Below are positions 10,729-63,318 of a stretch of DNA of 64,000 nucleotides, one piece after another; within the stretch, counting starts at the first letter, position 1; the number at the start of each line of letters is the position of its first letter. The notes beneath the pieces are model-generated. The model saw only the letters and a list, made by a program, of their open reading frames with translations, had not been told where the DNA came from and ran no database searches. The DNA comes from Phycisphaerae bacterium (lineage in GTDB: Bacteria > Planctomycetota > Phycisphaerae > UBA1845 > PWPN01). The position numbers and the translations under genes are program-made. Where the stretch lies: contig JABRVU010000014.1 in the NCBI GenBank assembly GCA_039961895.1, forward strand, positions 19,019 through 83,018. The letters are read 5' to 3'.

Positions 10729-10744
10729 GGCGCCCCTCTTTCGA

Positions 10745-11308: not shown

Positions 11309-11422
11309 CCTTCGGGTTACCCGATAGCCGTGGTGACCGAAAGAAACCGTGTTGTTTCGAGGAGGTTGAAGTTGGCTCATCGCTTGCTTGGACCATCCAA
11401 TGGGGTCGGCATCGGAGCCGTG

Positions 11423-14680: not shown

Positions 14681-16260
14681 GGCGTCACCTCGACGGCCCG
14701 GGCCACCTCTTCGGCGTCGGCGCCCAGGTCGGTCATGAAGGCGCGGATGTCGCCGTTGGGCTCGTCGACCTCGACGCGCGCCACGACGGCGTGGACCATC
14801 CGCATCCGGTTCTCGGGGCTGAGCGTGTCCCAGACCGTGTCGAAGTCGGCGAGGCACCGCTTCACCCACTCCGCTTCGAGCTCGGTGTCGGCGAGGAGCG
14901 CGAGGCGGCGCTGGACCTCAAGGTAGCGGGCCTCGAGGCGGCCGAGCTGCTCGCCGACCTCCTGGAGCTTGGCGTCGAGCAGGCGGCGCGCGGGCCCGGT
15001 CACGTTGCTCGCGGTTTCGACCAGGCGCTTGCCCTCGGTCGAGACGGCGGCGATCTGGCCCGGTAGCTGCGACCGCTCCTCCTCGAGCGGTCCGCGCTCC
15101 TTCTCCAGCCGCTCCTTGGCGGCCTTGGCGACGGCGGCGGCGAACTTGCCGTCGGCGAGGGCCTCGCGGACGCGCTGGATGACGAAGCCCTCGATCGCCA
15201 TCGCGGGCAGCGGCTTCGAGGGGCAGGCGTCGTTGCCCAGCTTGTCGCGTGTCGAGCATCGGTAGTAGCGGTAGACCTTGCCCGTGGCGCGCCGGTTCGA
15301 GGCCGGCGTGAAGGCCTGCCCGCAGCGGGCGCAGCGCACGATGCCGGTGAGGATGTACTCGGGGTTGCGGCCGTTGCGGATGACGCGGTCGCCGCCCTTC
15401 TCCGCGAGCAGCGCCTGCACCCGGTCGTAGAGCTCGCGCTCGATGATCGCCTCGTGCTCGCCCTCGTAGACCTCGCCCGCGGAGGAGATCAGCCCCGCCG
15501 GCACCGGGCTCTTGAGGATGGCGAGCACCGCGTTCTTCTGCCACTCGCGGGCGCCCCGGCTGTTGCCGTTCGAGGCAACGTGGTGCTTGGTCGAGCGGTG
15601 CTCGGCGTTGAGCGCGGTGGCGACGGCGACCGCGGAGCGCTTGTCGAGGTAGAGGTCGTAGACTCGCCGCACCAGCGCGGCCTCGACCTCGTTCACCACG
15701 AGCTTCTTCTTCTCGACGCTGTAGCCGAGCGGCGGGATGCCGCCCGTCCACTTCCCCTTGCGGCGCGAGGCGGCGATCTTGTCCCTCGTGCGCTCCGCAA
15801 TCATGGATCGCTCAAATTCCGCGAAGCTCATCAGCATGTTGAGCGTCAGCCGCCCCATGGCGTCGGCGGTCGAGAAGTTCTGCGTGACGCTCACGAAGGC
15901 CGCGCCGGCGCGGCTGAAGCGGTCCATCACCTTGGCGAAGTCGAGCAGCGAGCGGCTCAGGCGGTCGACCTTGTAGACGACCACCACGTCGATCTTCCCG
16001 GCCTCGATGTCCTGCAGCAGCCGCGCGAAGGCCGGCCGCTCGAGGTTCGCGCCGGTGAAGCCGCCGTCGTCGTACTTCTCGGCGATGAGCTGCCAGCCGA
16101 GGCACGCCTGGCGGCTGATGTACTGCTCGCAGGCCTCGCGCTGGGCGTCGAGCGAGTTGAAGTCCTGGTCGAGGCCCGCCGACGTCGACTTGCGGGTGTA
16201 GATCGCGCAGCGCCTGACCTCGGGGACCGGCGACGGTGCGGCGGGTCGCTTCTTGTTCAT
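14677..16260 (-). CDS. Large serine recombinase (phage integrase type)
   Basis: N-terminal resolvase catalytic domain CAIYTRKSTS...SLDAQREAC...VVVYKVDRLSRS, then a recombinase domain, a zinc-ribbon (CARCGQAF...YYRC) and a coiled coil. Start taken at MNKKRP. Confidence 0.9.
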   Translation of the reverse strand: MNKKRPAAPSPVPEVRRCAIYTRKSTSAGLDQDFNSLDAQREACEQYISRQACLGWQLIAEKYDDGGFTGANLERPAFARLLQDIEAGKIDVVVVYKVDRLSRSLLDFAKVMDRFSRAGAAFVSVTQNFSTADAMGRLTLNMLMSFAEFERSMIAERTRDKIAASRRKGKWTGGIPPLGYSVEKKKLVVNEVEAALVRRVYDLYLDKRSAVAVATALNAEHRSTKHHVASNGNSRGAREWQKNAVLAILKSPVPAGLISSAGEVYEGEHEAIIERELYDRVQALLAEKGGDRVIRNGRNPEYILTGIVRCARCGQAFTPASNRRATGKVYRYYRCSTRDKLGNDACPSKPLPAMAIEGFVIQRVREALADGKFAAAVAKAAKERLEKERGPLEEERSQLPGQIAAVSTEGKRLVETASNVTGPARRLLDAKLQEVGEQLGRLEARYLEVQRRLALLADTELEAEWVKRCLADFDTVWDTLSPENRMRMVHAVVARVEVDEPNGDIRAFMTDLGADAEEVARAVEVTP

Positions 16261-33451: not shown

Positions 33452-34216
33452 GTGACCAAGAAGAACACCGACGCCGAGGCGAAGAAGAACGGCCGCCCGC
33501 GCAAGGGCGACGGGCCGAAGGTGAACTACGACGAGCTGGACCGGATGCTCGTGCTCGGCGAGCTCGTGCCCTCTCCCGACGGCGGCGAGCCCGCCGTGAA
33601 CTACCCCTCGTACCGCGAGCTGGCGAAGCGCTATGGCGTCTGCCACAGCGTCGTCGCGGACTACGCCAAGAAGCACGACTGCCTGCGCCGGCGCGACCGC
33701 GCCCGCGAGCGGCTGCTGGCGAAGACCGAGGAGAAGCTCCTCGAGCTGCGTGCCGAGGCCATCGCGTTCTCGAAGGAGGACGCCGTCGCCACGATCGACG
33801 AGTACCTGATCGCGTTCCGCGAGGCCGTCGCCGAACGCAAGGTGCGGGTGGACAGCCCGAGCGACTTCAACATCATGCTGCGCCTCAAGGAGTTCATCCT
33901 GGGCGGCGCTGACTCCCGCCAGGAGGTCCACGCGGCGCTGTCGCTCGAGGAGCTGCAGGCCCGCCACCGCGAGATGCTCAAGGCGGTCGAGGACGCGAGC
34001 GAGGACGAGCGGGGTAGCACTCTCGGCGCCGCGAAATCGCTCGCCGCTGGTGAACAGCGGGAGGACGACAACCCCCCGCCTCCCTCCCTCGCGACTGGCC
34101 CGGGAGAACCGCACGGTCGGCCCGGGCCCGACGCGCAGCAGACACCGCCGGACGGCGACGACGAGGCCGCCGTCGCGGCCCACGTTGGCCCGAGTGGCGA
34201 CGAGGAGGAGCCGTGA
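33452..34216 (+). CDS. Terminase small subunit candidate (HTH protein)
   Basis: N-terminal basic region plus HTH (SYRELAKRYGVCHSVVADYAKKH), a coiled-coil middle and an acidic tail. It is the last gene before the terL region. The call rests on position and architecture only. Confidence 0.45.
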   Translation: MTKKNTDAEAKKNGRPRKGDGPKVNYDELDRMLVLGELVPSPDGGEPAVNYPSYRELAKRYGVCHSVVADYAKKHDCLRRRDRARERLLAKTEEKLLELRAEAIAFSKEDAVATIDEYLIAFREAVAERKVRVDSPSDFNIMLRLKEFILGGADSRQEVHAALSLEELQARHREMLKAVEDASEDERGSTLGAAKSLAAGEQREDDNPPPPSLATGPGEPHGRPGPDAQQTPPDGDDEAAVAAHVGPSGDEEEP

Positions 34217-34249
34217 AGGCCTGGCGGCCAGGCCCGATCGCCGGCGCGC

Positions 34250-34284
34250 GTACCGCCGAGAAGAGCAGAAAGCGGCGGTTCGCC
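34250..34284 (+). repeat. Repeat copy A (GTACCGCCG...AAGCGGCGGTTCGC)
   Basis: A roughly 35-bp imperfect direct repeat of 35249..35284. The cores AAGCGGCGGTTCGC at 34270-34283 and 35270-35283 are identical. Confidence 0.7.
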
Positions 34285-34347
34285 GCGCGGGCGGCTCGCA
34301 GGAATGCGGAGTTGCGGCGCGGAGTTGGCGCGCCCCTCGCGGTGGCC

Positions 34348-34359
34348 AACCGCCGCTTT
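34348..34359 (-). repeat. Inverted copy A' of the core (AACCGCCGCTTT)
   Basis: Reverse complement of AAAGCGGCGGTT at 34269-34280, read directly. Confidence 0.65.
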
Positions 34360-34587
34360 CCTCTGCGTTTCGCGGGCGGGTGGTCCCTCGGAGGTCATCA
34401 TGCCTACCTCTGCCCACAGCCGGGGGGAGGGTCGGATTTTCGTGCCGGGCAGCCCGCTGGCTCGGATGCTCGTTCCCCATCCCGAGAAGGCCAGATCCGG
34501 GAAACCGAACGGGGTGCCCCCGGACAACCGAGCGGGCGGTTCCCGGTGGCCGTGTTCGGTTTCGAGGTGCAAGTAGGTCCCCGGTAC

Positions 34588-35205
34588 TCAGCAGGGCAGG
34601 TCGCGGACGGCGCGGACGAGGTCCTCGTCGGAGGGATGGGCGTAGATGGACGTGGTCAGGATCGACTTGTGCCGTGCGAACCGCTGGGTCATCCGGATGT
34701 CCTTGGTGCGGCGGTAGAGCGTCGAGCAGGCGCTGTGCCTCAGCGAGTGGAACGAGAGGTGCCGCTCGAACCCGGCGCGCTCCTGCCAGGTCGTGAAGTT
34801 CTCCCGGAGCTGCCGGCTCGACAGGCGCTTGCCGAGGCGGCTCACGAAGACGGGCGCGTCCGGGGCGAGGCTCTCGCCCTGGTGCCGTTTCCAGGAGCGC
34901 AGCTTCTCCAGCTTCGCCCGCACGAGGTCGGGGAGCACCACCTCCTGGATCGCGGGCTCGTCGGCGCTGCGCTTGAACACCCGCAGGGTCACCCGCCGCT
35001 TGGCGCGGCCCTCGTCGTCGAAGACGTCGCCCATGTCGAGGGCGAGCAGCTCGTGCTCGCGCAGGCCCGTGCCCAGCGCGAGGCTGATGATCACGTGGTC
35101 GCGGAAGCCGTCGCGGTGCTCGCCCGTGACCTTGAGCAGGAGCTTCTGCTCGAGGTCGGTGAGCGTGCGCGGCGGCTTGGCGATGGCATCGGCGTACGCG
35201 GTCAT
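34588..35205 (-). CDS. Short tyrosine recombinase (catalytic domain only, FimB/FimE-sized)
   Basis: [12 protein letters not shown] (Arg), HSLRHSA (His-x-x-Arg), [12 protein letters not shown] (His...Tyr). 205 aa from the ATG at 35205, which is preceded by GGAGGTG. There is no room for an N-terminal core-binding domain. Confidence 0.85.
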
Positions 35206-35248
35206 GGGTTCACCTCCTGGCCGTTCGTCACGCTCCCATACAGGCGTC

Positions 35249-35284
35249 GTACCGCCGCAAAGGCAAGGCAAGCGGCGGTTCGCG
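35249..35284 (+). repeat. Repeat copy B (GTACCGCCG...AAGCGGCGGTTCGC)
   Basis: Direct repeat of copy A, located between the recombinase start (35205) and the terL start (35298). Confidence 0.7.
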
Positions 35285-35297: not shown

Positions 35298-36734
<1,437 letters not shown>

Positions 36735-36738
36735 GAGG

Positions 36739-37458
36739 TCAATCGTCGTGGCAGGCGCCGCCGCAGCCGCAGTCCTCGCCGCGCCAAGCCTCACGGCCTT
36801 CGGCGACGAGGAACCAGGTCATGCCGAGCGCGGCCACCGGGTCTGCCCACCACCAGCCGAGGGCGGCGTTCAGAGCGATGCCGACAAGAGTGATCAAGGA
36901 CAGCCAGAAGCATGCGGTCGTCTGAAACGAATCAGCCTCCAGCGCCCGGCTTCCCAGGCGGCGGGCGGTCCTGCGCTTCGCACGCGCCAGCCACCACATC
37001 ACGGTAAGGGACAACGACGTGATGGCGATGCCGACCAAGGAAGGCTCGGGCCGCTCCCGCGTGATTAGTGCCTTGGTCGCGTCGAACGCGACGTAGGCCG
37101 CGAGCAGGAACAGCGAGAGCCCGACGAGCTTGTGCGCCCGCTGGTCCAGCCGATCGACCTCCTCGGGGTCACGCGCCCGGCGCTCGGCGCGCAGACGCCA
37201 GATCAAGATCAGGCCCGACGTCGTTTCGACAAAGCTGTCGATGCCGAAGCCGAGCAACGCCACGCTGCCGGCGGCCAGGGCGGCGGCGACGGAAACGACG
37301 CCCTCGACGATGTTCCAGCCGACGGTCAGGTACTCGAGTCGCAACCCTTGTTTCACCAGCGCCGGCCTCTCGGAACCGTGGCAGCCGGACGCGCACTGGC
37401 AATTGGAACCCTCGGCGATGCCGGTGCCGGGAGCCTCGTTGCCGCGCTCCTCAGGCAT
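36739..37458 (-). CDS. Cation-efflux (CDF-like) membrane protein with Cys-rich termini
   Basis: TM core LEYLTVGWNIVEGVVSV...GFGIDSFVET, N-terminal CQCASGCHG, C-terminal CGCGGACHDD. Its stop lies 4 nt from the convergent terL stop. Confidence 0.65.
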   Translation of the reverse strand: MPEERGNEAPGTGIAEGSNCQCASGCHGSERPALVKQGLRLEYLTVGWNIVEGVVSVAAALAAGSVALLGFGIDSFVETTSGLILIWRLRAERRARDPEEVDRLDQRAHKLVGLSLFLLAAYVAFDATKALITRERPEPSLVGIAITSLSLTVMWWLARAKRRTARRLGSRALEADSFQTTACFWLSLITLVGIALNAALGWWWADPVAALGMTWFLVAEGREAWRGEDCGCGGACHDD

Positions 37459-38362
37459 GGGCGCTCCCTTCGCAGTCCGCGGTCAAGCAGCCTTCACTCG
37501 CGACCTCGACCTGCAGCGTGACGTGGCCAATCTCGAACTTCGCCTCCAGGGTCGCCAGCACGGCCATCCGAAGCGCGGCCACATCGGCCCCGGCGCCGAC
37601 CACGAGGTGCGCCGTCAGCGCCGGCTCCCTACTTCCGAGCGACCACACATGGAGATCGTGAACGGACACGACGCCCGGCTCGGCGAGCAGCGCGCTACGG
37701 ATGCGGTCGAGAGAGAGATGCCCGGGCACGCCCTCCATCAGGATGTGCCCGGCCTCGCGCACCAGAATCCAGGTCCGGGGCAGGACCCACAGGCTGATGA
37801 GCACCGCGATGAGCGGGTCGGCGACGGTCCACCCGGTTACCTTGATGACCGCCGCCGCGATGATCACGCCGACGGAGCCGAGCATGTCGCTCCAGACCTC
37901 GAGGTAGGCGCCCTTCACGTTCAGGCTCTCCCCGCTGCCGGACTTCAGCAGCAGCATCGAGACCAGGTTCACGACCAGCCCGCCGACCGCGATGACGAGC
38001 ATGCCGGTCGATGCAATCGGCGACGGCGTGCGGAACCTGCCGACGGCCTCCCAGAAGATGTAGCCGGCCACCACGAAGAGGAGCACTCCGTTGATGAGCG
38101 CCCCGAGCGCCTCCATGCGCGCGTAGCCGAACGTGCGCTTGGCGTCCGGCGGCCTGCGAGAAAGCCGAACCGCCACGAGCGAGATCACCAACGCGAACAC
38201 GTCCGTCGCCATGTGCGCCGCGTCCGAGATAAGGGCCAAGCTGTTCGTGAGCAGCCCGCCCACGACCTCGGCCACCAGGAAACCGGCGGTCAGACCGAAC
38301 GCCCACCAGAGGGGGCGCTCGTGCTTCACCTCCGCGCGGTGATGTTCGTGTTCTCCGCTCAT
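37451..38362 (-). CDS. czcD: CzcD/ZitB-type cation diffusion facilitator (Zn/Co/Cd efflux)
   Basis: His-rich N-terminus MSGEHEHH, signature LTNSLALISDAAHMATD, six-TM pattern and a C-terminal cytoplasmic domain (VHDLHVWSL). Confidence 0.85.
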   Translation of the reverse strand: MSGEHEHHRAEVKHERPLWWAFGLTAGFLVAEVVGGLLTNSLALISDAAHMATDVFALVISLVAVRLSRRPPDAKRTFGYARMEALGALINGVLLFVVAGYIFWEAVGRFRTPSPIASTGMLVIAVGGLVVNLVSMLLLKSGSGESLNVKGAYLEVWSDMLGSVGVIIAAAVIKVTGWTVADPLIAVLISLWVLPRTWILVREAGHILMEGVPGHLSLDRIRSALLAEPGVVSVHDLHVWSLGSREPALTAHLVVGAGADVAALRMAVLATLEAKFEIGHVTLQVEVASEGCLTADCEGSAHA

Positions 38363-38400
38363 GCGTACCACCTTCCTCCGTTCGCTCCGGGACGGCTCGC

Positions 38401-38889
38401 TCACCGCCCGTCGGAGCGTTCCGGAGCCGGGGCAGTTGTCCTCGCCACGTTCTCACCGCAGTCGAAGGTGCCGTCCACGGCCGTGCAGCCGCTGTCGTGG
38501 ACCGCCAGCATGAGCCGGGAGCTGCCCGCCGGCACCGCCTTGAGTTTCGTGCGAAACGAGGCGCCGTACCAGCCGTGCTGCTTGGGGCTCGTGCTCCGCT
38601 TCAGGGGCAGGCTTTCGGCCAAGAGGTCCTGCCCTTGCCGGTCCTTGATCGCCACGTCGACGTGCTCGTCCCGCACGCAGTACCCGTGGCGATGCTCTAC
38701 CTTGCCGTAGACGACGAGCTCGCCCTCGTCCTCGTCGGCACGCACGTAGGTGATGCGGTGGAAATCGCTCTCCGCGACGCTCACCACGAGCTTCGAGTCG
38801 TTGGACACGTAGGGGAGCGTCGTCGCGCATCCCCCCAGCGCCACGGTCACCGCCGCCGCACCGAGCAAACGAAATTTCAGTAGATCCAT
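38401..38889 (-). CDS. Lipoprotein of unknown function
   Basis: MDLLKFRLLGAAAVTVALGGC lipobox. The listed 344-aa ORF extends upstream through Arg-rich sequence overlapping the ICMT gene and is rejected. Confidence 0.55.
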   Translation of the reverse strand: MDLLKFRLLGAAAVTVALGGCATTLPYVSNDSKLVVSVAESDFHRITYVRADEDEGELVVYGKVEHRHGYCVRDEHVDVAIKDRQGQDLLAESLPLKRSTSPKQHGWYGASFRTKLKAVPAGSSRLMLAVHDSGCTAVDGTFDCGENVARTTAPAPERSDGR

Positions 38890-39515
38890 GGAATGTACCT
38901 CCAGCTTCTGCCGGCGTAGGCGCGATATGCCTCGCCGTGCATATTCACCAGGTGCTCCTCCTCGGCGCGCACCTGGAGCTCCATCACGACAAAGAACAGG
39001 ACCGCGAAGCTGGCGACCAGCGTCGTCGGCCAGATGATCCACAGGCCCAGATTGACCAGATGCAGACCGAGGTACGTGGGATTGCGAACGCGGCGATAGA
39101 TGCCGCCGGTCACGAGGTCCGTGCGGCGGTCGACATCGATGCCGACCCGCCACGCGGAGCCCATCGTCGCCTGCGCGGCCGCGCACACGGCAAGCCCCGC
39201 GACACCAAGGACGGCCCCGGCCACGTCGAACCACCAGGGGTCGAGCGCGGCCACCCGCACCAAGGGCGGCCAGGCGTCGGGTGCCCCCGCGTGAAGCCCG
39301 ATGACGAGGACGACCAGGCCGGTCATGACTCGCAAGAGTCTCGCGAAGTACCGCTGCACCGGCGTCGTCGCCATGTGGATCACCTCGGGGTCGACGCCTG
39401 TACGACGCCGGTCGCGGTGTCGCTTCAGTCGCCACAGTGCCAGGTAGCCGACGAAGAGCGACACCACCTCAGCGGCTTCGACGAGACGGTGCGTGGTCAT
39501 GGCCGGCCCCATCAC
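38877..39515 (-). CDS. Isoprenylcysteine carboxyl methyltransferase (ICMT/PEMT) family membrane protein (CzcN-like)
   Basis: GGIYRRVRNPTYLGL...VRAEEEHL...YRAY family signature with multiple TM helices. Confidence 0.75.
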   Translation of the reverse strand: MMGPAMTTHRLVEAAEVVSLFVGYLALWRLKRHRDRRRTGVDPEVIHMATTPVQRYFARLLRVMTGLVVLVIGLHAGAPDAWPPLVRVAALDPWWFDVAGAVLGVAGLAVCAAAQATMGSAWRVGIDVDRRTDLVTGGIYRRVRNPTYLGLHLVNLGLWIIWPTTLVASFAVLFFVVMELQVRAEEEHLVNMHGEAYRAYAGRSWRYIPWIY

Positions 39516-39841
39516 ACCGCACCCGCACCGCGCTCGCCGGTGCGGATCTTCACGACGTCCGCGACGTCGTAGAGGAAGATCTTTCCGTCGCCCGCGAGCC
39601 CGGTGCGGGCGGCTCGGGCGATGGTCTCGATCACCTTCTCAACGAGCGCATCCGGAACGACGACCTCGAGCTTGGCCATCTTCGCCTCGCCGGTGAGGTC
39701 GGGAGTCTCGCCGCCGGGGTCGTTACGGTTGAAGCCGTAGACCATCGACATGGTGATGCCCGGCAGGTGCGGCAGCTCCTGGAGGCTGTCGATGACCTTG
39801 TCGAGCATGTTGCGCTTCACGATCGCTTTGATCTCCTTCAT
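39512..39841 (-). CDS. P-II (GlnB-like) family protein
   Basis: MKEIKAIVKR...GITMSMVYGF...LEVVVPDALVEKVIETIARAARTGLAGDGKIFLYDV...IRTGE tracks GlnB end to end. Confidence 0.8.
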   Translation of the reverse strand: MKEIKAIVKRNMLDKVIDSLQELPHLPGITMSMVYGFNRNDPGGETPDLTGEAKMAKLEVVVPDALVEKVIETIARAARTGLAGDGKIFLYDVADVVKIRTGERGAGAV

Positions 39842-39850
39842 GGCCGTCTC

Positions 39851-42800
39851 CTACAGCTCGACGCCGGCCTTGGCCGGTGCGAAGCGGGTTGCAAACAGTG
39901 AGTAGATGGTGGGCAACACGATGAGCGTCAGCAGCGTCGAGGTGACGAGGCCGCCCATGACCACCACCGCGAGGGGCTTCTGGATGTCCGCCCCGGAGCC
40001 GGTCGCGTAGAGCATCGGCAGGTGGCCGATGAAGCTCGTGAGCGCGGTCATCAGCAGTGGCCGGAAGCGGAGGTCACAACCCTTGGTGACCGTGTCCGCC
40101 ACCGACTCTCCCTGCTCGCGGAGCTGACGGAAGAAGGCGACGAGGACCACGCCGTTCTGGACCGCGATGCCGAGCAGCACGATGAAGGCGACCGCCGCGG
40201 ACACCGAGACCGGCATCCTGAACGCCACCACCGCGATGACCCCGCCGACGAGCGCGAACGGCAGGTTGAGCAAGACCAGCAAGGCGTTCCAGATCGATCC
40301 GAGCGCCATGTAGAGCAGCACCATGATCAGCAGGAGCGCGATCGGCACCACGATGGCGAGCTGACGCATGGCCCGTTGCTGGTTCTCGAACTGCCCGCCG
40401 TACTCGACGTAGTAGCCGGACGGCAGCTCCTTCACGAGCGGCGCGAGCTTCTGCTGAACCTCGCCCACGAAGCCACCGAGGTCGCGGCCGCGGATGTTCG
40501 CCTCGGCCACCACCCGCCGCATGCCGTTCTCGCGGCTCACCTGCGCGGGCGCCTCCACAACCTGGAAGTCGGCAATCTGCGCGAGCGGCACGCGCTCGCC
40601 GCCGGGGGCCGTGACCAGCAACCGCTCGAGCTCCGGGATGTCGCCGCGGGCCGACTCCGGGAACCGCACGACCACCGCAAACCGGCGCTGCTCCTCGATC
40701 AGGGTCGTGGCCTTCTTGCCCGCGACAGCCGTCTCGATGACGGCGTTGACGTCCCCGATCTTGATGCCGTGCCGCGCCACGGCCTCCCGGTCGATGACCA
40801 CGTCGAGCTGGGACATGCCCGACACCTGCTCGACCTTCACATCCCGCGCTCCCTCGATGCCGCCCAGGGTCGCGGCCGCGCGGTCCGCGAACTGCTTGAG
40901 CACGGCGAGGTCGGGCCCGAAGACCTTGATCGCGAGGTCACTCTTCACGCCCGAGATGAGCTCGTTCACGCGCAGCGCGATGGGCTGCGAGAAGGAGAAG
41001 CGCAGACCCGGGATCTCGGCGAGGTCCTTCTGGATGGCCTCGACCAGCTCGGCCTTGTCGCGCCCGGTGCCCCATTGCTTGCGGGGCTTGAGCATGATGA
41101 AGACATCAGTCTGCTCCGGGCCCATCGGGTCCTCGGAGATCTCGGCCCGCCCGGTCTTGCTCACCACCGTTTCGACCTCGGGGAACTTCCGCAGGCGCTG
41201 CTCCATGAACGTCGCGACCTTGACCGAGCCGTCGAGCGAGGCGTTCGGGTGCCGCACCACGTTGACGGCAATCGATCCCTCATCAAGATCGGGCATGAAC
41301 GTGGTGCCCATGAACGGGAGGAGCGCCAGGGAAGCAACGAGCACGCCGCCCGAGATTCCGAGGGTCACCGCTGGGCGCCGCACGGCGCGACTGAGTAATC
41401 GCACGTAGGCCCTGTGGAAGCGGCGGATGAAGCCGAACTCCTTCTCCGGGACCTGCTTGAGGAAGACATCGGAGAGGACCGGGATGACGGTCAACGCCAC
41501 GACGAGCGACACCAGGAGAGCGATGAGCATCGTCGCGGCGAGCGGGGCGAACATCTTCCCCTCGATGCCCTGGAGCGTGAACAGCGGCACCAGGATGATC
41601 GCGATGATGAGCACCGAGAAGGCGACCGGCCTCGCGACCTCGACGAGAGCCTCGGCCACCACCCGGCGCTTGTGTTCCTTCTCTGTCCGGTGCGCCAGAT
41701 GCCGCCGGATGTTCTCGACCACCACGATCGACGCATCGACCACCATGCCGACGGAGAACGCGAGGCCGCCCAGGCTCATCAGGTTCGAGCTGATGCCCGC
41801 CGAGCCCATGAAGATGAAGCTCACCAGGAAGGTCAGCGGCAGTGAGAACACGACGATGAGCGCGGTCCGGAACTCGGCGACAAAGAGGAAGAGGATGAGA
41901 ATGACGAAGATGCCACCCTCGAGCAGCGCGTCGACCACGGTCTTGATGCACGCCTCGATGAGCGAGGTCCGGTCGTAGAAGACGTTGAGCTTCACCCCCT
42001 CGGGGAGCGTGCCCTGGATCTTGCCAATCGACTCCTTGACCCGGCTCACGACGTCCCCTGAGTTCGCGCCCTTGAGCATGATGATCATGCCCGCCACCGC
42101 CTCGCCCTCGCCGTCGCGCGAGACGGCGCCCTGTCTGGGCTCGGCGCCGATGACGACGTCGGCGACGTCCCTCAGGTAGACCGGCGAGCCGTCCTTGGAC
42201 TTGAGGACGATGCGCTCGATGTCGGGGATGTCCTTCATCAGGCCCACGCCGCGCATGTAGAGCTGCTCCCAGCCCCGCACCACGACGCCGCCGCCCGCGT
42301 TGGCGTTCCCCTGCTCGACCGCCTCGACGACCTCGTTGACCGTGAGGTCGTACTTGAGGAGCTTCTCGGGCGAGATCAGCACCTGGTACTGCTTGACCTC
42401 GCCGCCGAAGCTGTTGACCTCGTTGACCCCTGGTATGGGCTTGAGCAGCGGCGCCACGATCCAGTCCTGGACCGTGCGCAGCTCCATCGCGCTCTTGCCT
42501 TCTCCCTCCAGCGTGTACTGGAGGATTTCACCAAGACCCGTGGAAATCGGGCCGAGCTCGGGCTCGACGCCAGGGGGGAGCTCCTCGCGCGCCATGCTGA
42601 GGCGCTCGAAGACGACTTGCCGGGTCCAGTAGGTGTCGACGCCGTCCTCGAAGATGATGACCACCTGCGACAGCCCGGCCTTGGAGAGCGAGCGTACTTG
42701 CTTCACGCGCGGCAGGCCTCGCATGACCTGCTCGATCGGGTAGCTGACGCGCTGCTCCACGTCGACGGCGGCCAGCCCCGGAGCCTTCGACAGGATCATG

Positions 42801-42934
42801 ACCTGGGTGTTGGTGACGTCGGGGAATGCATCGATCGGCAGGTGCAGCCACGCCATCACGCCCGCCGCAATGAGGACCGCGGTGGCGAGGAGCACGAGGA
42901 GACGGTTCTTTAGCAAAAAGGTGATCTGTTTCAT
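39851..42934 (-). CDS. czcA: CzcA-type heavy-metal RND efflux pump
   Basis: LPIDAFPDVTNTQVMILSKAPGLAAVDVEQRVSYPIE...GLSQVVIIFEDGVDTYWTRQVVFERL follows the CzcA N-terminus. 1027 aa, 12-TM layout. Confidence 0.9.
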   Translation of the reverse strand: MKQITFLLKNRLLVLLATAVLIAAGVMAWLHLPIDAFPDVTNTQVMILSKAPGLAAVDVEQRVSYPIEQVMRGLPRVKQVRSLSKAGLSQVVIIFEDGVDTYWTRQVVFERLSMAREELPPGVEPELGPISTGLGEILQYTLEGEGKSAMELRTVQDWIVAPLLKPIPGVNEVNSFGGEVKQYQVLISPEKLLKYDLTVNEVVEAVEQGNANAGGGVVVRGWEQLYMRGVGLMKDIPDIERIVLKSKDGSPVYLRDVADVVIGAEPRQGAVSRDGEGEAVAGMIIMLKGANSGDVVSRVKESIGKIQGTLPEGVKLNVFYDRTSLIEACIKTVVDALLEGGIFVILILFLFVAEFRTALIVVFSLPLTFLVSFIFMGSAGISSNLMSLGGLAFSVGMVVDASIVVVENIRRHLAHRTEKEHKRRVVAEALVEVARPVAFSVLIIAIILVPLFTLQGIEGKMFAPLAATMLIALLVSLVVALTVIPVLSDVFLKQVPEKEFGFIRRFHRAYVRLLSRAVRRPAVTLGISGGVLVASLALLPFMGTTFMPDLDEGSIAVNVVRHPNASLDGSVKVATFMEQRLRKFPEVETVVSKTGRAEISEDPMGPEQTDVFIMLKPRKQWGTGRDKAELVEAIQKDLAEIPGLRFSFSQPIALRVNELISGVKSDLAIKVFGPDLAVLKQFADRAAATLGGIEGARDVKVEQVSGMSQLDVVIDREAVARHGIKIGDVNAVIETAVAGKKATTLIEEQRRFAVVVRFPESARGDIPELERLLVTAPGGERVPLAQIADFQVVEAPAQVSRENGMRRVVAEANIRGRDLGGFVGEVQQKLAPLVKELPSGYYVEYGGQFENQQRAMRQLAIVVPIALLLIMVLLYMALGSIWNALLVLLNLPFALVGGVIAVVAFRMPVSVSAAVAFIVLLGIAVQNGVVLVAFFRQLREQGESVADTVTKGCDLRFRPLLMTALTSFIGHLPMLYATGSGADIQKPLAVVVMGGLVTSTLLTLIVLPTIYSLFATRFAPAKAGVEL

Positions 42935-42949
42935 GGCGATCTCCCTTCT

Positions 42950-44272
42950 TCAGTCCGCGCATCCCGCGCCCATCTTCGAGCGCAGGACGTCGGACTTCAT
43001 GAGGAAGGCGCCTTCGGCCACGACGACCTGCGACGGCTCGACGCCCTTCTTGATTTCGGCCCAGCCGGCCCACCGCCGTCCCACGACGACGGGGCGCCGG
43101 ACGTAGTAGTCGCCCTGGTAGTGGACGAATACGAACGAGCGGCCCTCGTCCTCGAGGACGGATTGCCTCGGCAGGGCCATGGTCTCCTCCGTGCCCGGCA
43201 GGAAGACCTTGACCGCCGCGAACATCCCCGCGAGCAGGCGGCCGTCCTCGTTCTTGACCTGAACTCGGACCTTGACCGTCCGCGAGGACTCGTCCATTGC
43301 CGGGCTGACCAGATCGACCGTTCCGGCGAACTCCTCGCCCGGGTAGGCCTTGACCGAGATCGTCGCCGCGAGCTTCTGGGCGGCCTGGCCCTTCTTCACC
43401 GCGGCGATGTCCCGCTCGTACAGATCGGCCCAAACCCAGACCGCCGTGTTGTCGCCCACGGTCAGGAGCGCTTCCTCCGTCTTGGCCACCTCGCCGGACA
43501 CCGCGTGCATCACCAGCACCGTGCCGTCCATCGGCGCTCGCAGGACGATGCGCCCGCCCTCGGTCCCTCCCGTACCGAGGCGGTTGAGCTTGCTACGCGC
43601 GCCCGTCGCGCGGATCTCGGCCGCCTCCAGTTCCTGCTTCGCCTGGAGGTACTCCTTTTCGGAGGAGATGTTCTCCTTTCGCAGCTCGGACACTCGCTCG
43701 AAGTTGCGGCGCGCGAGGGTCAGCATGCCTTGCGCTTCGAGGTAGGCGGCTTGCCCTTCGCCGACCGCGACGCTCTCGATCTCGAGGAGCGGCTGCCCCT
43801 TCTTGACCTGATCTCCGAGCGCGACGTGGACCGTCTTGATGATGCCCTCGACCTGCGTGCTCACGTGGCCGACCCGTCGCTCGTCGAAGCGGACCTCGCC
43901 GGTGAGCGCAATCGGCACGGCGACCTTCTGCCGTTCGGCCTTGGTAGTGGTGAAGAGGCCACCCTGCGTCAGGGAAGCGGGAGCACGAACGAAGCCCGTC
44001 TCGTAGCGGCACTCGTCGCACTCGTAGGTCTTCTTCTTGTGCTCGCAGGTGAGACCGACCAGCTCGGGGATCGGCCGGTCCAAATCCGAGGGCTCCTTGC
44101 CCTCGGGGCCCTCGCCGTGCTCGGCATGGCCTCCTTCGCCCTCGTGGGACGCATGGTCGTCGGCTTTCGCCGCCGGAACAGGCGTACCTTCGGCCGGGTT
44201 CTTCTTGTTGCAGGACGCGCTCGCGGCCACCAGGGCCAACGAGAAGACTAGGATGAAGATGCGGCTGTTCAT
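42950..44272 (-). CDS. czcB: RND periplasmic adaptor (CzcB-like) with His-rich N-terminal region
   Basis: HASHEGEGGHAEHGEG, a CEHKKKTYECDEC motif, then membrane-fusion-protein domains. Confidence 0.8.
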   Translation of the reverse strand: MNSRIFILVFSLALVAASASCNKKNPAEGTPVPAAKADDHASHEGEGGHAEHGEGPEGKEPSDLDRPIPELVGLTCEHKKKTYECDECRYETGFVRAPASLTQGGLFTTTKAERQKVAVPIALTGEVRFDERRVGHVSTQVEGIIKTVHVALGDQVKKGQPLLEIESVAVGEGQAAYLEAQGMLTLARRNFERVSELRKENISSEKEYLQAKQELEAAEIRATGARSKLNRLGTGGTEGGRIVLRAPMDGTVLVMHAVSGEVAKTEEALLTVGDNTAVWVWADLYERDIAAVKKGQAAQKLAATISVKAYPGEEFAGTVDLVSPAMDESSRTVKVRVQVKNEDGRLLAGMFAAVKVFLPGTEETMALPRQSVLEDEGRSFVFVHYQGDYYVRRPVVVGRRWAGWAEIKKGVEPSQVVVAEGAFLMKSDVLRSKMGAGCAD

Positions 44273-45573
44273 TTGGGCTCCTCTCCGACGAGCGCGCCGA
44301 GGCGGCTGCAGTCGATCTGGGCTTGCGCGAGCGCGCTCAGGTAGAGGCGGCGCGAATCAAGCAAAGTGCGGCGGGCATCGATGACCTCGAGCAGGCTCGC
44401 CTCGCCGAGTTGGTACGTCTTCTCCATGGTTGACGCCGCTGTCTCGGAGCGCGGCACCACGTTGTTCCTGAACCGTGTCGCGGTCGCGACCGACGCTTGG
44501 CAAGCCGCCTGGGCGTCGACCACGGAGGCCTGAAGCTCCAGGCCGGTGGCCTCGGCATGTTTGCGGCTGGCGGCCAGTCTGGCTTCCGCCTGGGCGATGC
44601 GACCGGAGTTCCAGTTCCAGAGCGGCAGGTCGACCGTGAGCCCGACACCGTAGGCCCGCCGGTCCAGCTCGTAGCTCGTGAAGCCCGTAAGACCGAACGC
44701 GGGCACGCGAGCCAGCTTCTCGGTGTCGAGCTCGGCCTCGAAGAACCGCGTCCGCGCCCTGGCGACTGCAAGGGACGGATGGGCGATCCGCGCCTTGGAC
44801 AGGGCCGCGTCGCGATCGAGCGCCACCGGGAGACTATCGAGATCGGCGGTCAGCACCAGCGTCTGTCCCGCGGGTACGCCGAGCCATAGCGCGAGCTCGG
44901 CGCGACGGGCCTTGAGCGAGACGCGCGCCGCCTCGAGCTCGCTCGTGACCTTCTCGAGCTCGATCTCGACCCGGGTCGCCTCGACGGGGCGGACCTCGCC
45001 CTTCTCCACTCGCTTCCTCACGGTTTCGACGAGCGCCAAGGTCTGCGCCTCGAGCGCCTCGAGGGATGCGACCCTGGCCTGTTCGTAGGCGAGGTTCCAG
45101 AACAGGGTCCGGAGCTGGAGCAGGACGTCCCGGCGCAGCGCCTTGGTTTCGGCCAGGGCGACGTCGACCTCTGCCTCGGCCGCGCTGATGCGCGACCCGC
45201 GCTGCGCGATCCAACCCAAGGGGATGGTCACGGCGAGGCCCCACTCGACACGGGAGGCGCCACCGGTCCTGGCGACGCCCTGGCCGACGTTGCCTTCCAG
45301 GGTCGGGTTGGGCACGGCGCCAGCGGCGTCGACGCCGCCCCGCGCGGCGTCGACCTGGAACTTGCCCGCGGAGAGCCGCGGGTGCTGATCGACCAGGCGG
45401 ACGACGTCAGGCCAGGTCAGGTTGACGGTTGCGGACGAACCGTCCGCGATTTCGGCCGGCGGAACCGAATCGGGCTGACCCGGGCCGGCCATCGCCGGGC
45501 TCGCCGAGAGGAGAACTACAAGTAGGAGCTGACCGCGCCTCCAGCGGGAGGCGCGTTTGAGAACGCAATGCAT
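44269..45573 (-). CDS. czcC: TolC-family outer-membrane efflux protein (CzcC-like)
   Basis: Signal peptide (LLLVVLLSASPAMA), TolC-type repeats, and a 4-nt overlap with czcB. Start taken at MHCVLK. Confidence 0.75.
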   Translation of the reverse strand: MHCVLKRASRWRRGQLLLVVLLSASPAMAGPGQPDSVPPAEIADGSSATVNLTWPDVVRLVDQHPRLSAGKFQVDAARGGVDAAGAVPNPTLEGNVGQGVARTGGASRVEWGLAVTIPLGWIAQRGSRISAAEAEVDVALAETKALRRDVLLQLRTLFWNLAYEQARVASLEALEAQTLALVETVRKRVEKGEVRPVEATRVEIELEKVTSELEAARVSLKARRAELALWLGVPAGQTLVLTADLDSLPVALDRDAALSKARIAHPSLAVARARTRFFEAELDTEKLARVPAFGLTGFTSYELDRRAYGVGLTVDLPLWNWNSGRIAQAEARLAASRKHAEATGLELQASVVDAQAACQASVATATRFRNNVVPRSETAASTMEKTYQLGEASLLEVIDARRTLLDSRRLYLSALAQAQIDCSRLGALVGEEPK

Positions 45574-45689
45574 CTTCGAATACCTGCCTTTCGATGACGC
45601 CCGCGAGGGACGTCCGGGTTGCGCCAAGCCATCGGCTCGCGTTGCACGGGGGCACGCGAGCGCAACGGCGCCTTCTCAAAGGGAAGGCG

Positions 45690-46022
45690 TTAGGCGCGGG
45701 GCGGGTGGAAGATGCGGAAGTGGACGTCCTTCGGATGAAGGTCGTCGTACACGCTCAGATTCAGCTCATCCGAGTCGGGAGGAGCTGGCGCGAGCTGCTG
45801 CGGGACAAACAGGGTCGTGGCCGCGTGACCCGGACAGCAGGTACACGCGCAGGCCGGGCCGCAGGGATGGCCCTTGTCGTCGGGATCGGGACAGGGCGAG
45901 CCCTCGGTGTGGCTGATCTGATCCCCGCTCGCCCAGGATCGCAGCACCTCGCCCGCGGTCGCCGAAACCATGCCGGCGACGAAGACAAAGAGGACGAGAA
46001 CGGCGACACGCTGGAGTTTCAT
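45690..46022 (-). CDS. Small secreted Cys-rich protein (CzcI-position, putative metal-binding)
   Basis: Signal/anchor MKLQRVAVLVLFVFVAGMVSA, then CPDPDDKGHPCGPACACTCCPGH. It lies between arsR and czcC. Confidence 0.5.
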   Translation of the reverse strand: MKLQRVAVLVLFVFVAGMVSATAGEVLRSWASGDQISHTEGSPCPDPDDKGHPCGPACACTCCPGHAATTLFVPQQLAPAPPDSDELNLSVYDDLHPKDVHFRIFHPPRA

Positions 46023-46432
46023 GCGCGCGCCCCCTGTTCTGCCAGGTGGCGTGCGCAGTCGTCGAGAAGAGAGACGATGAACGGCGAGTGGAGCGAGTAG
46101 TGGACGAGCTTGCCCTCGGACCGCGAGCGCACGATGCGGAGATCCTTGAGCTGGTGGAGCTGGTGCGAGGTCGCCGAGACCGACAACCCGACCGCCTCGG
46201 AGATCTCACAGACGCACATCTCGCCGCTGGCGAGCGCCCTGATCAGCCGCACGCGGGTCGGGTGCGCGAGCATCTTGAAGGTGTCGGCGATCTCCTGCGC
46301 CTGCTCACTGGGCGGAAGCGCGGCCCTTCCGCGACGCACGCGCTCCTGGTCCACGGAGAAGACACCACAATGCTCGTCCGCACCGGCCTTGCCGTGCGTT
46401 CTTGCGAGTGCGGCTGTCTTCCTTCGTGCCAT
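46019..46432 (-). CDS. ArsR/SmtB-family metalloregulator
   Basis: FKMLAHPTRVRLIRAL...EMCVCEISEAVGLSVSATSHQLHQLK is the ArsR winged HTH, with the CVC metal site. Confidence 0.85.
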   Translation of the reverse strand: MARRKTAALARTHGKAGADEHCGVFSVDQERVRRGRAALPPSEQAQEIADTFKMLAHPTRVRLIRALASGEMCVCEISEAVGLSVSATSHQLHQLKDLRIVRSRSEGKLVHYSLHSPFIVSLLDDCARHLAEQGARA

Positions 46433-46616
46433 GAGCGATTCATTACCTCACTTGAGCAAGTATAGAAACGTTCTGCCTGCTTGTCAACCCATTCCAGTCC
46501 AACCCGTCGATTTGGCCAGGGTTTCAACCGCGGCGGGCCTGGGAATATTCCCGCCTCTGTCCCCGCTTCGACCGCCCGCGGCTTTGCCTCTCCGGAACCA
46601 CTCAGGGAGGCGACCC

Positions 46617-46787
46617 ATGAAGTCCTGGTACGAGAGCAAGACGATCTGGTTGGGCCTGGCGACTATCGCGACCGCGGTGGTGTCGGCGGTGGCGGGCGGC
46701 GCGGGCTGGCAGCAGGCAATCCTCGCCGCCGTCGGCGCAGCGAACATCTTCCTGCGCACGCAGACCGACAAGCCGGTGGGGAAGTAG
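46617..46787 (+). CDS. Small membrane protein (56 aa)
   Basis: GGGAGG lies 6 nt before the ATG. MKSWYESKTIWLGLATIATAVVSAVAGGAGWQQAILAAVGAANIF has two hydrophobic helices. Confidence 0.45.
   Translation: MKSWYESKTIWLGLATIATAVVSAVAGGAGWQQAILAAVGAANIFLRTQTDKPVGK

Positions 46788-47134: not shown

Positions 47135-47138
<4 letters not shown>
46929..47138 (+). CDS. Hypothetical small protein upstream of portal
   Basis: ATGA overlap with the portal start. Composition is plausible. Confidence 0.4.
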
Positions 47139-48950
<1,812 letters not shown>

Positions 48951-48964
<14 letters not shown>

Positions 48965-49516: not shown

Positions 49517-50573
49517 CGACCTCGCCCTGGTCGCCGAGGCCCGCGACGTCGCCGATGCGCTCCTCGGCCGCTACCTGCGGCTCGACGTCGCCAAGGCCAT
49601 GAACCTCGGGACACCGGGCGGCTTCGACCGCGCTGTGGTGCGCCTCGCCCGCCTTCTTCAGGGCCGCGCGGCCGACTCCGATCACGCCGCGGTCAAGGCG
49701 GCGGTCGAGGTCCTCGACGTGGACTGGCATCGCACCACGGTCGAACAGCGTCGCTCGCTCATCTCCCGCGCGCTGGAGGCGTCCGGTCGCAAGACCAAGG
49801 ACGTGCCGGCCAAGGTCCAGACCGTCTTCGGGAACGCGGCGACCGAGGTGGTGCGCGCGACCCGGGACGGGGCTCGCCGCGACCAGAAGCTCGCTATCGG
49901 CGCTGACTTCAACGCCGTCGACCAGCGGGTGATCCGTCATCTCCGCTCCAGCCAGGCTAACTACGTCCGCGACGAGTACGGCCGCCGGCACGACGCGTTC
50001 GGCGAGGAAGCCCGGCGCATCGTCTCCGAGGGGCTCGAGTCGGGCCTGGGCCGGGACGACATCGCCGAGGACCTGGCGGAAGCCGCCAAGGGCATCATCG
50101 CCGGTCGCTCGCCGGCCTACTGGGATGTCGTGGCCGGGTCGTTCGTCGGCCGCGGGCGGTCGTTCTCCCAGCTCTCGGCCTACGCGGAGGCGGCGGTCAC
50201 CCGCTACCGCATCGTGGCCGTGCTGGACGAGGTGACCACGCCCACCTGCCGGTTCCTCGACGGCAAGACCTTCTCGGTCAGCCGCGGGCTCGAGCTGTTC
50301 GACCGGGTGGAGGCCAACCCGGACAGCATCGAGGAACTGAACCCCTGGGTGCGGGACACCGTGGACCCGGCGACCGGCAAGCGGTCGCTGTCGATCGAGC
50401 GCGGCGGCGAGCGGTACTCCATCGCCGACATCGTGCGCTCGGGCGTCGGCGCCCGTGACGACCGCGGGGAGTTCTCGCGAGGCCTCGGCGAGCGCGAGCT
50501 GGGCGACCTCGGAATTGGCTTTCCGCCCTACCACGGGCTCTGCCGCACCACGACCGTGGCCGAGGTCGAGTGA
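49491..50573 (+). CDS. Phage head morphogenesis protein (Mu F / SPP1 gp7 family)
   Basis: VLDEVTTPTCRFLDGKTFSV is the family signature (D..T...C..LdG). AGGAGGA precedes the ATG at 49491. Confidence 0.7.
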   Translation: MCVRCATADDLALVAEARDVADALLGRYLRLDVAKAMNLGTPGGFDRAVVRLARLLQGRAADSDHAAVKAAVEVLDVDWHRTTVEQRRSLISRALEASGRKTKDVPAKVQTVFGNAATEVVRATRDGARRDQKLAIGADFNAVDQRVIRHLRSSQANYVRDEYGRRHDAFGEEARRIVSEGLESGLGRDDIAEDLAEAAKGIIAGRSPAYWDVVAGSFVGRGRSFSQLSAYAEAAVTRYRIVAVLDEVTTPTCRFLDGKTFSVSRGLELFDRVEANPDSIEELNPWVRDTVDPATGKRSLSIERGGERYSIADIVRSGVGARDDRGEFSRGLGERELGDLGIGFPPYHGLCRTTTVAEVE

Positions 50574-50624
50574 CCGTGTCCCCGTTTTGAGCATGCCCGG
50601 CTTTGCCCATGCGGAGGTGAAGCC

Positions 50625-50823
50625 GTGTCCGAAGGCGCGACCGACAAGAGCACCGCGAAGGCCCAGCCGGACCTGAAGTTCCGGCTCGCGGCCGTCCGCG
50701 ATCGGTGCGCCGTCCTGCGAGGCCGCAAGCCCGCCGCCAAGGACGACGGCACCGCCTGGCCGCGCGACCTCAACGCCACCGGCCAAGATGGCACCTGGGG
50801 CAACGACCCCGTGGAGGTCCGGG

Positions 50824-50831
<8 letters not shown>
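50625..50831 (+). CDS. Hypothetical small protein
   Basis: GTG start preceded by GGAGGTG. Overlaps the next gene by 8 nt. Confidence 0.35.
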
Positions 50832-53984
<3,153 letters not shown>

Positions 53985-53988
<4 letters not shown>

Positions 53989-62313: not shown

Positions 62314-62775
<462 letters not shown>

Positions 62776-62778
62776 ACG

Positions 62779-63318
62779 CTATCTGTCCAGAAGGCGGTCG
62801 AGATTCTCAGGGTCTACGCCGAATGCGGCTGCCACGCTGCGCACGCCGTCGAACCAGCCTGCTCCATGACCCTTGTCGCTCATCGAGCCATCAGGACGTC
62901 GGCGACCTGGTTCCTTGGGGCTCCAGCCGCGATGAACGTCGTCGGACACCTGGTGGACGAACTCGTGCCAGAGTTCGATCCGCCACATCGGCCACTCGAC
63001 GCCGTACTTGGACCACTCGGCCGGCGGGAAGTCGAGATCGTGCGAAGGCCAGTCGTCCCCGTCGCAGAGCGGCAGAATCATGATGCGCTTGCAGCCCGAA
63101 TAGCAGGGGGTAGCGTTCCTCAACGGAGAGCCAAGAGGCGTCGCTTCCTCGGCCGCAGCGTTCTCATCTGCCTGGTAGATGTCGAGGGGAACGGCCTGAA
63201 GTCCGAGCTTCTCCCGGAGGCGTTCGTACTCTCCCCGAATCACTGTCGCCGCGATGTGCAGGTCGCCTGCCACGAGGGGAATGTACGCCCGCGACGATTG
63301 CAGCGTCCATGTCCCCAC
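62779..63318 (-). CDS. Opposite-strand moron: hypothetical protein with HExxH motif
   Basis: This is the only minus-strand gene in the head/tail module. [16 protein letters not shown] contains the motif. Composition is coding-like (Trp/Asp-rich, not Arg/Gly noise). Confidence 0.55.

Follow-up and report, generated by a model that had tools for sequence, protein, structure and literature searches.

A predicted metal-efflux operon at an accessory hotspot between the terL and portal genes of a Myxococcota-type prophage

We analysed a 64,000-nucleotide stretch of contig JABRVU010000014.1 (positions 19,019 to 83,018; assembly GCA_039961895.1), hereafter the window, in which the gene of the terminase large subunit (terL, stop at 36734) is separated from the portal gene (start at 47135) by ten contiguous minus-strand genes. 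Based on our analysis, we consider it very probable that the window carries an integrated phage, and that a permissive hotspot between its terL and portal genes holds a 9.8-kb operon derived from a bacterial chromosome, which would act as an ArsR-regulated metal-efflux system. The original prediction, made from the sequence alone, had pointed to these ten genes; they are present and intact, and a regulator, a complete tripartite pump of the heavy metal efflux resistance-nodulation-division (HME-RND) type and two cation diffusion facilitators (CDF) do lie inside one phage element, as it had proposed.

As the G+C content of the window is about 70%, genes were called by codon-position G+C, and the calls were checked against profile libraries. 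The exact window terL was found only in assemblies derived from the Sequence Read Archive. Relatives, about 80 loci with terL identities of 57-97% (designated L with a number), came from a scan of species-representative genomes and IMG/VR; nearly all of them are located in metagenome-assembled genomes (MAGs) of Myxococcota (Polyangia, Myxococcales, Archangium, Haliangiales).

Boundaries of the cargo

Comparison with related prophages, as suggested in the original prediction, defined the boundaries of the cargo to the base, at 36735 and 46552. In the empty-site relative L008 the terL stop codon is joined directly to the homologue of window position 46553. Homology with L004, L010, L065, L068, L072 and L075 ends at 36732-36735, i.e. 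at the terL stop, and homology with L007 and L055 restarts at 46556-46557. The right end had originally been placed at 46616, but positions 46553-46616 belong to the phage backbone, where they comprise a promoter-like element and the ribosome-binding site (RBS) of a gene for a 56-amino-acid (aa) protein.

A search of the cargo ends for direct or inverted repeats and for a target duplication found none, and there is no transposase among the ten cargo genes. The features of a transposon or an integron cassette are lacking, and the nearby tyrosine recombinase gene is not part of the cargo, from which terL separates it. In composition the cargo is distinct from the backbone: its G+C content is 67.3% versus 70.4-70.6%, and its G+C at third codon positions (GC3) is 0.886 versus 0.957 (Mann-Whitney p = 4e-5).

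The foreign composition, together with several contigs that stop inside the cargo and the abundance in metagenomes of CzcA copies of 89-98% identity, is what would be expected of an assembly chimera, in which the chromosomal czc operon of a co-occurring bacterium was misjoined into a phage contig. However, three assemblies contain the left junction (SRR28719891, SRR28525168 and SRR13594152) and five contain the right junction (SRR28719891, SRR28525165, SRR28719890, SRR28525167 and JGI 3300021949), including the unrelated run SRR13594152 and JGI 3300021949, and a single 98-kb contig covers both. The exact portal protein is encoded on 12 contigs, with arsR adjoining in every one, the exact cargo proteins recur in several samples, and a different phage, L055, has similar cargo at the same site. 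Because both junctions recur in independent assemblies, we regard a chimera as highly improbable. The contig breaks inside the cargo are consistent with nearly identical chromosomal copies elsewhere in these communities.

The terL-portal junction as a family-wide hotspot

It was originally assumed that terL and portal are normally adjacent, and that their separation is odd and possibly inactivating. The family does not bear this out. In the 54 relatives that have both genes, terL and portal are separated by 2 to 8,946 bp (median 1,459 bp); this gap exceeds 1 kb in 32 and 3 kb in 6, whereas the gap between portal and the gene of the MuF-like protein is at most 812 bp. Order and strand are the same in all 54 loci: terL, variable gap, portal, MuF, methyltransferase-protease. 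The 139 open reading frames (ORFs) extracted from the terL-portal gaps match 117 Pfam families. Among them are the defence systems AbiEi/AbiEii (the AbiEi models match up to 10 of the 139 ORFs) and TOTE AEP-helicase. There are also CHAT, Schlafen/AlbA_2, NadA and methyltransferase genes, an MMPL transporter, a P-type ATPase and, in L007 and L014, Na+/H+ (Kef-type) exchangers that have TrkA domains. As the 54 relatives carry variable gaps with unrelated cargo, the junction is a family-wide accessory hotspot and not the site of a disruptive one-off insertion.

The closest relative, L004 (terL 97% identical in amino acids; 90.5% DNA identity over 3.1 kb), diverges exactly at the terL stop and has an AbiEi gene where the window has a CDF gene, which means that the cargo was exchanged within about 10% backbone divergence. 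Two further variable sites were found in the family. The second lies between the MuF and methyltransferase-protease genes (window 50573-50788) and reaches 6.2 kb (L041; also L047). The third follows the tail tube gene (window 62775-63309); it contains a ScoMcrA_N gene in L130 and, in the window, a 179-aa minus-strand ORF (62779-63318).

The original prediction named one finding that would speak against it, namely that terL and portal come from two different degraded elements, here flanking a chromosomal metal island. The 10.4-kb separation and the opposite-strand genes in between could be taken in this sense. Yet both sides of the gap resemble the same relatives to about the same degree (for L008, 81% in terL and 80% in portal), the empty site of L008 joins them directly, and the 54 related loci keep order and strand. 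As these relatives share the terL-portal order, we reject the two-element scenario as next to impossible.

A promoter-like element on the portal side

The features between the cargo and the portal gene, with the latter, are:

46557-46588, plus strand: promoter-like element of the backbone, CTGTCCCC-N16-GCTTTGCC, just to the right of the cargo and ahead of the 56-aa gene
46617-46787, plus strand: conserved 56-aa hydrophobic backbone protein, 77-79% identical in L007, L008 and L055
46929-47138, plus strand: conserved 69-aa backbone protein preceding portal (phrog_15834, E = 1.5e-15)
47135-48964, plus strand: portal protein (PF04860; phrog_12)

The cargo is thus placed between terL and portal, as originally described, but it does not abut portal: the two small backbone genes intervene.

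Further copies of the element in the window (33391, 46788, 50576 and 63309) are all intergenic and on the plus strand. Copies of the element are situated 6-30 nt upstream of a GGAG-type RBS. In 1.14 Mb of family loci (L004-L092) the strict pattern TGTCCCC-N13-19-CTTTG[CG] occurs 38 times in the phage sense and once on the opposite strand; 28 of these 38 copies have a spacer of 17 nt. In many loci a looser pattern keeps a constant distance to the start of portal whatever the size of the gap, some 340 nt in the clade that has the 69-aa gene and roughly 30-50 nt in others. Each of the three variable sites lies directly upstream of a copy, and some hotspots hold several elements between cassettes. 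The sequence CTGTCCCCG at the right boundary was first read as a recombination site. The window contains just two exact copies of this 9-mer, and by itself it is not significant; when extended, it became a bipartite, strand-specific element upstream of several genes, promoter-like rather than att-like.

The arrangement fits a family-specific promoter, TGTCCCC-N17-CTTTGC, for a non-sigma70 holoenzyme or an activator. If the element is a promoter, transcription of the late genes would be re-initiated at its copies, and therefore insertions upstream of a copy would not cut these genes off. The element upstream of the portal unit may in this way explain why the terL-portal site tolerates cargo. 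Inactivation of the prophage, which had been raised as a question, is not supported: the portal unit has its own promoter-like element, and the integrase, replication, head and tail genes look complete.

The terL side and the mode of cargo turnover

On the left the cargo borders on the following genes:

33452-34216, plus strand: conserved 254-aa backbone protein, kept in relatives (phrog_32085, E = 1e-64, function unknown; weak HTH_50 match)
34588-35271, minus strand: small tyrosine recombinase, catalytic domain only (Pfam Phage_integrase, E = 2.5e-26)
35298-36734, plus strand: terminase large subunit, terL (Terminase_6N/6C; PHROG terL families), whose stop is the left edge of the hotspot

An adjoining terS/terL block had been presumed; the gene directly upstream of terL is instead that of the small recombinase. 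The 254-aa protein is a candidate small terminase, a role that we infer only. The recombinase gene points away from terL and is back-to-back with it in nearly all relatives (median gap 20 bp in 64 loci, at most 606 bp). Its product has 205-227 aa across the family, and the Xer-, invertase- and integron-integrase-type NCBIfam matches are weak, all below cutoff; in size and weak matches it resembles Xer and FimB/FimE-type invertases. It is conserved even though a large serine integrase is already present in the phage.

A recombinase beside terL in nearly all relatives, with matches of these types, raises the question of whether cargo is placed or exchanged by site-specific recombination, with the enzyme acting on TGTCCCC...CTTTGC elements in an integron-like manner. 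The coincidence of the cargo edges with a repeated element, and the hotspots with several elements between cassettes, would agree with this. On the other hand, no direct or inverted repeats flank the cargo. The element is without an inverted-repeat core; it occurs on one strand only, upstream of an RBS and start, and also at the non-variable position 33391. Moreover, relatives with the recombinase can have empty sites (L088, L091), and the two other hotspots are far from the recombinase gene. We therefore consider site-specific recombination improbable. We give an equally small chance to its extension, in which the recombinase and the repeated elements would form a phage-borne, integron-like platform for cassette exchange within the structural operon, actively recruiting host operons. 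The best account of cargo turnover seems to be illegitimate capture with later homologous recombination within terL and portal, the conserved genes on either side.

The space between the 254-aa gene and the recombinase stop, 34217-34587 (plus strand), comprises about 370 nt of non-coding DNA that is conserved block-wise in relatives with no more than 75-80% terL identity. It contains two helices with compensatory changes: ACCGCCG/CGGCGGT, with CG exchanged for UA in 9 of 25 sequences, and GAAACCGAAC/GTTCGGTTTC; G.U wobbles agree with the plus strand. A further segment, AACCGCCGCTTTCC, is also complementary, which suggests that alternative pairings and a terminator-like hairpin could form. Rfam contains no match to this region, which may be a structured RNA or else a DNA structure of the pac/cos type next to terL; if a cassette-exchange platform did exist, the region could be part of its control.

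Genes of the cargo and their proposed function

The cargo consists of:

36735-46552, minus strand: whole cargo, metal-efflux operon, 9,818 bp, ten genes
36739-37458, minus strand: CDF transporter, 239 aa, Cys-rich termini (PF01545, 60.9 bits; 83% identical to the chromosomal copy of L116)
37451-38404, minus strand: CDF with ZT_dimer, ZitB/CzcD-like (PF01545 and PF16916; TIGR01297, 296.7 bits)
38401-38889, minus strand: lipoprotein, 162 aa, lipobox LGGC (frame and GC3 check; 64% identical to the L116 homologue)
38877-39515, minus strand: ICMT/PEMT-family membrane methyltransferase, CzcN-like (PF04191 and PF04140)
39512-39841, minus strand: P-II family protein (PF00543, E = 5e-19)
39851-42934, minus strand: HME-RND permease, CusA/CzcA family, ZneA-like (TIGR00914, 1142 bits against a cutoff of 701)
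42950-44272, minus strand: membrane fusion protein (MFP), periplasmic adaptor, CzcB-like (HlyD_D23; RND_mfp, 179.5 bits; BSH_CzcB and CzcB_C)
44269-45627, minus strand: outer membrane factor (OMF), CzcC-like (PF02321, two repeats; the automatic call starts at 45492, 407 aa)
45690-46022, minus strand: DUF6660 small Cys/His-rich protein (PF20365, 27.9 bits; N-terminal hydrophobic segment read from the sequence)
46019-46432, minus strand: ArsR/SmtB metalloregulator (HTH_5; NF033788, 88.9 bits against a cutoff of 55)
46459-46487, minus strand: sigma70-like cargo promoter TTGACA-17-TATACT, the sole 11/12 consensus match in 13.3 kb

The operon thus runs arsR, DUF6660, OMF, MFP, HME-RND permease, P-II, ICMT, lipoprotein, CDF, CDF. 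According to the Pfam and NCBIfam comparisons all ten ORFs are intact, and they keep the coding GC3 signature. Two of the more specific models remained under their thresholds: the second CDF scores 273 bits with the ZitB model, below the model cutoff, and the MFP 178 bits with the CzcB/NccB model TIGR00999 (cutoff 319). Helix alpha3 of the regulator contains a CVC motif (EMCVCEI, read from the sequence), and the cargo promoter is conserved with the regions upstream of the chromosomal arsR genes of L121 and L116. The most obvious ATG ORF in the lipoprotein region, 38453-38830, was discarded as a wrong-frame shadow; the true frame, 38401-38889, has the lipobox.

We propose that in a lysogen the ArsR/SmtB protein would hold the TTGACA-17-TATACT promoter shut. 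Binding of a thiophilic divalent metal, probably of the Zn/Cd/Pb/Co type, to ArsR would release the promoter, and the ten genes would be transcribed in the antisense direction relative to the late genes of the phage. Both CDF proteins would then shift cations from the cytoplasm to the periplasm, from where the tripartite RND pump would expel them across the outer membrane. The outcome would be lysogenic conversion to metal tolerance.

Origin of the cargo

The CzcA protein of the cargo has thousands of homologues, of which 120 are 80-98% identical; those that were located are chromosomal, and the operons around homologues of 91-94% identity have their genes arranged as in the cargo. One homologue (94%) adjoins cmk, ispH, rpsA (ribosomal protein S1) and sppA. 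Another (91%) belongs to a metal island in which the genes follow the order arsR, DUF6660, OMF, MFP, RND, P-II, lipoprotein, CDF, CDF, VKOR/DsbA, ICMT and DUF302. The other cargo proteins are 64-85% identical to chromosomal copies, DUF6660 43-57%. The chromosomal locus L121 has an almost identical region upstream of its arsR, including TTGACA-17-TATACT. Because of these matches we interpret the cargo as a native operon captured whole, with its own promoter, from a bacterial chromosome, a conclusion drawn from sequence comparison. Pattern-based scans of IMG/VR for relatives of the window CzcA found none, which is a weak negative as the sensitivity of such scans is low.

A similar set of genes (DUF302, CDF, ICMT, lipoprotein, RND, MFP, OMF, DUF6660, arsR) occupies the same site in L055, whose terL is 78% identical to that of the window. 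This czc-like cargo is only 33-76% identical to the window cargo, and its left junction differs. Descent of both from one cargo was rejected: the window CzcA is 91-94% identical to chromosomal operons versus 56-57% to L055. We take the L055 cargo to be an operon of this kind that was acquired independently. The alignment of its RND permease gene (5739-8778) is split over two frames (query residues 4-658 and 664-1023); either the gene is a frameshifted pseudogene, or the assembly is in error.

Class of the permease and points that weigh against a working efflux system

In the comparison with structures in the PDB, ZneA (4k0e) was the best match of the permease (712 bits; CusA, 627 bits). Transmembrane helix 4 (TMH4) reads DFGIIVDGAIVVMEN in ZneA and AVGAMVDAAIVMIEN in CusA. 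Several points weigh against our reading of the element and its cargo. The first concerns the permease itself, whose TMH4, SVGMVVDASIVVVEN, has SVG-DAS-VEN and is without the first Asp of DFG-DGA-VEN; DFG-X3-DGA-X3-VEN is the TMH4 motif that Nies reportedly described in 2003 for CzcA-type (HME1/2) pumps. CusA possesses a methionine triad, M573/M623/M672, in the periplasmic cleft; in the two positions that were compared, M573 ('...LLYMPS...') and M623 ('...PLEMVE...'), the permease has residues other than Met. As the first Asp of the motif and at least two of the three Met residues of the CusA triad are missing, the substrate of the permease is uncertain. The second point is the apparent frameshift in the czcA of L055, as it implies that cargo of this kind can decay. 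Thirdly, the proposed promoter role of TGTCCCC-N17-CTTTGC is based solely on position, strand and spacing. Fourthly, the stop codons of terL (36732-36734) and of the first CDF gene (36739-36741) are convergent and 4 nt apart, as the original prediction had noted, and a terminator was not found between them. The two transcription units may therefore interfere, and antisense read-through into terL is possible. Finally, all the sequences are metagenome assemblies, several contigs break inside the cargo, and co-occurring near-identical chromosomal copies could confuse assemblers.

The deviating TMH4 and the apparently frameshifted L055 gene would suit a cargo that is an inert passenger heading to decay, with no metal phenotype for the lysogen. 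We find this unlikely, although less so than the other alternatives weighed here. The ten ORFs are intact and have coding GC3, the native promoter is retained and conserved, and the exact proteins recur in several samples. Furthermore, the TMH4 variant is invariant, or nearly so, in nine aligned chromosomal homologues. The permease is probably a ZneA-like HME-RND protein, not CzcA sensu stricto, and it probably transports divalent cations. The label 'czc-type' that was originally given to the cargo is accordingly correct as far as the CusA/CzcA family is concerned, but the closest protein is ZneA, and the canonical DFG-DGA-VEN is absent.

The prophage and its host surroundings

The genes and homology limits described below identify the element as an integrated, temperate, contractile-tailed phage whose host is of Myxococcota type. 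It spans at least 58 kb, its left end is near 14257, and it appears to be complete. The left end is marked by:

14250-14260: left prophage/host junction (attL crossover region), in the last 3-4 codons of the host sigma54 response regulator gene
14677-16260, minus strand: large serine recombinase, the likely phage integrase (Pfam Resolvase, Recombinase, Zn_ribbon_recom)

DNA homology to the empty-site contigs L136 and L137 breaks off after ...GACTTCAAG, near 14257. These contigs encode a response regulator that is 95% identical and the same block of Cus-like RND, cupredoxin, histidine kinase and response regulator genes, followed by pyruvate kinase and other chromosomal genes. It is because the empty-site strain loses homology at the 3' end of the regulator gene that we take the element for an integrated, apparently complete temperate phage. 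The phage attB would be located in the final codons of the sigma54 regulator gene, of which only the last 3-4 residues are altered.

The serine recombinase gene is followed by a DUF2924 gene and by an XRE repressor with an M78 peptidase. Replication-type genes of the element encode helicases, a primase and a PD-(D/E)XK nuclease. The head genes, recognised by Pfam and PHROG matches, are terL, portal, the MuF-like protein and an HK97-type major capsid protein. The tail sheath was recognised by phrog_15814, 17610 and 23, and the tail tube is gp19. Further right on the same 98-kb contig are the genes of the tape measure protein (PhageMin_Tail), GPD, base_V, gp25 and Baseplate_J. The closest isolated phages are distant, with best matches of 37% for terL (Brevibacillus phage Emery) and 34.5% for portal. 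The methyltransferase-protease gene (50788-53988, plus strand) encodes a 1,066-aa fusion of three D12-class N6-adenine methyltransferase repeats and an XkdF-type head-maturation protease domain. This fusion is kept family-wide, while the number of repeats varies.

Several MAGs hold two to five distinct copies of the phage family (SKS1.bin3: L039, L045, L056, L064 and L070; also L037/L044 and L021/L079). The Mx-alpha prophage of Myxococcus xanthus is also a multi-copy one. A link to Mx-alpha was not established from the literature, the papers found being without gene-level data.

The host chromosome to the left of the prophage (4275-14271) contains a second heavy-metal system, composed of a CusA-like RND permease (TMH4, SVGVLVDGAIVEVEN), a CusB-like adaptor with an HMBD domain, an OMF, a cupredoxin, a histidine kinase and the sigma54 response regulator. 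This Cus-like block with its two-component system was initially suspected to be phage cargo, since all contigs with the exact response regulator had the recombinase. It was ruled out as such, because the strain with the 95%-identical regulator has the block and then chromosomal genes. The first part of the window (1-4270) has a lower G+C content, 58%. Its ORFs encode a superfamily-1 helicase-like protein (26-1843), a protein judged by eye to be ADP-ribosylglycohydrolase-like (1788-2813), and one with an HNH-like Cys/His motif; this part may be a small defence or mobile island. A tRNA scan and an Rfam scan gave no matches.

Relation to known systems and significance

Phage hotspots for accessory and defence genes are well established, as illustrated by the antiviral hotspots of P2 and P4 (PMC9122126) and by hyper-variability hotspots (bioRxiv 10.1101/2024.10.15.618418). 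Like such hotspots and morons, the terL-portal site is fixed between core genes and carries unrelated, fast-turnover cargo with much defence (AbiE, TOTE), and the window cargo has its own predicted promoter and a composition unlike the backbone. It differs from P2/P4-type hotspots in being embedded in the packaging/head module, where it begins at the terL stop, and in its occurrence in an uncultured Myxococcota phage lineage. Further differences are the ten-gene metal-efflux operon in place of defence genes and the family-specific promoter-like element just downstream.

The reference systems for such an operon, CzcCBA and ZneCAB with a CzcD-type CDF and a CzcN-type ICMT protein, are those of Cupriavidus metallidurans, where the two-component system CzcRS is a regulator. 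The window operon shares with them an OMF-MFP-RND set of the CusA/CzcA family, CDF partners and an ICMT-family protein. Unlike them, it has an ArsR/SmtB regulator, not CzcRS, additional P-II, DUF6660 and lipoprotein genes, and SVG-DAS-VEN in TMH4.

Matches of the window permease were found in 54 of 50,697 deposited phage records, most of them metagenomic or doubtful. Burkholderia phage vB_E427 (PQ789820.1), deposited as a 'complete genome', encodes an HME-type RND permease that is 43% identical over 94% of the query, with an adjacent MFP. In contrast to the window element, this phage is Mu-like, its cargo follows the Mor/early region, and neither arsR nor CDF is annotated beside it. Huang et al. 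2021 (PMC8240259) reported metal-resistance genes, including Co/Zn/Cd RND components, on lysogenic viral contigs from Cr-contaminated soil. That is survey-level annotation, without boundaries, empty-site comparison or donor operon, all three of which are resolved in the window case. The cargo had originally been called very unusual, but RND systems on phages are known from vB_E427 and from a viral contig of PMC8240259. Phage-borne metal resistance is clean in the present case but not unprecedented, and no current view is overturned.

New here are the level of resolution (boundaries, empty site, type of donor operon and recurrence) and the account of hotspot architecture in a Myxococcota phage family that had not been characterised. 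Because boundaries, empty site, donor and a second acquisition have been resolved, the claim of surveys that lysogenic phages spread metal resistance gains a directly testable case. The Myxococcota prophage family, a large and uncultured one with at least three cargo-permissive sites in its head and tail operons, would moreover be useful for mining defence and ion-homeostasis genes.

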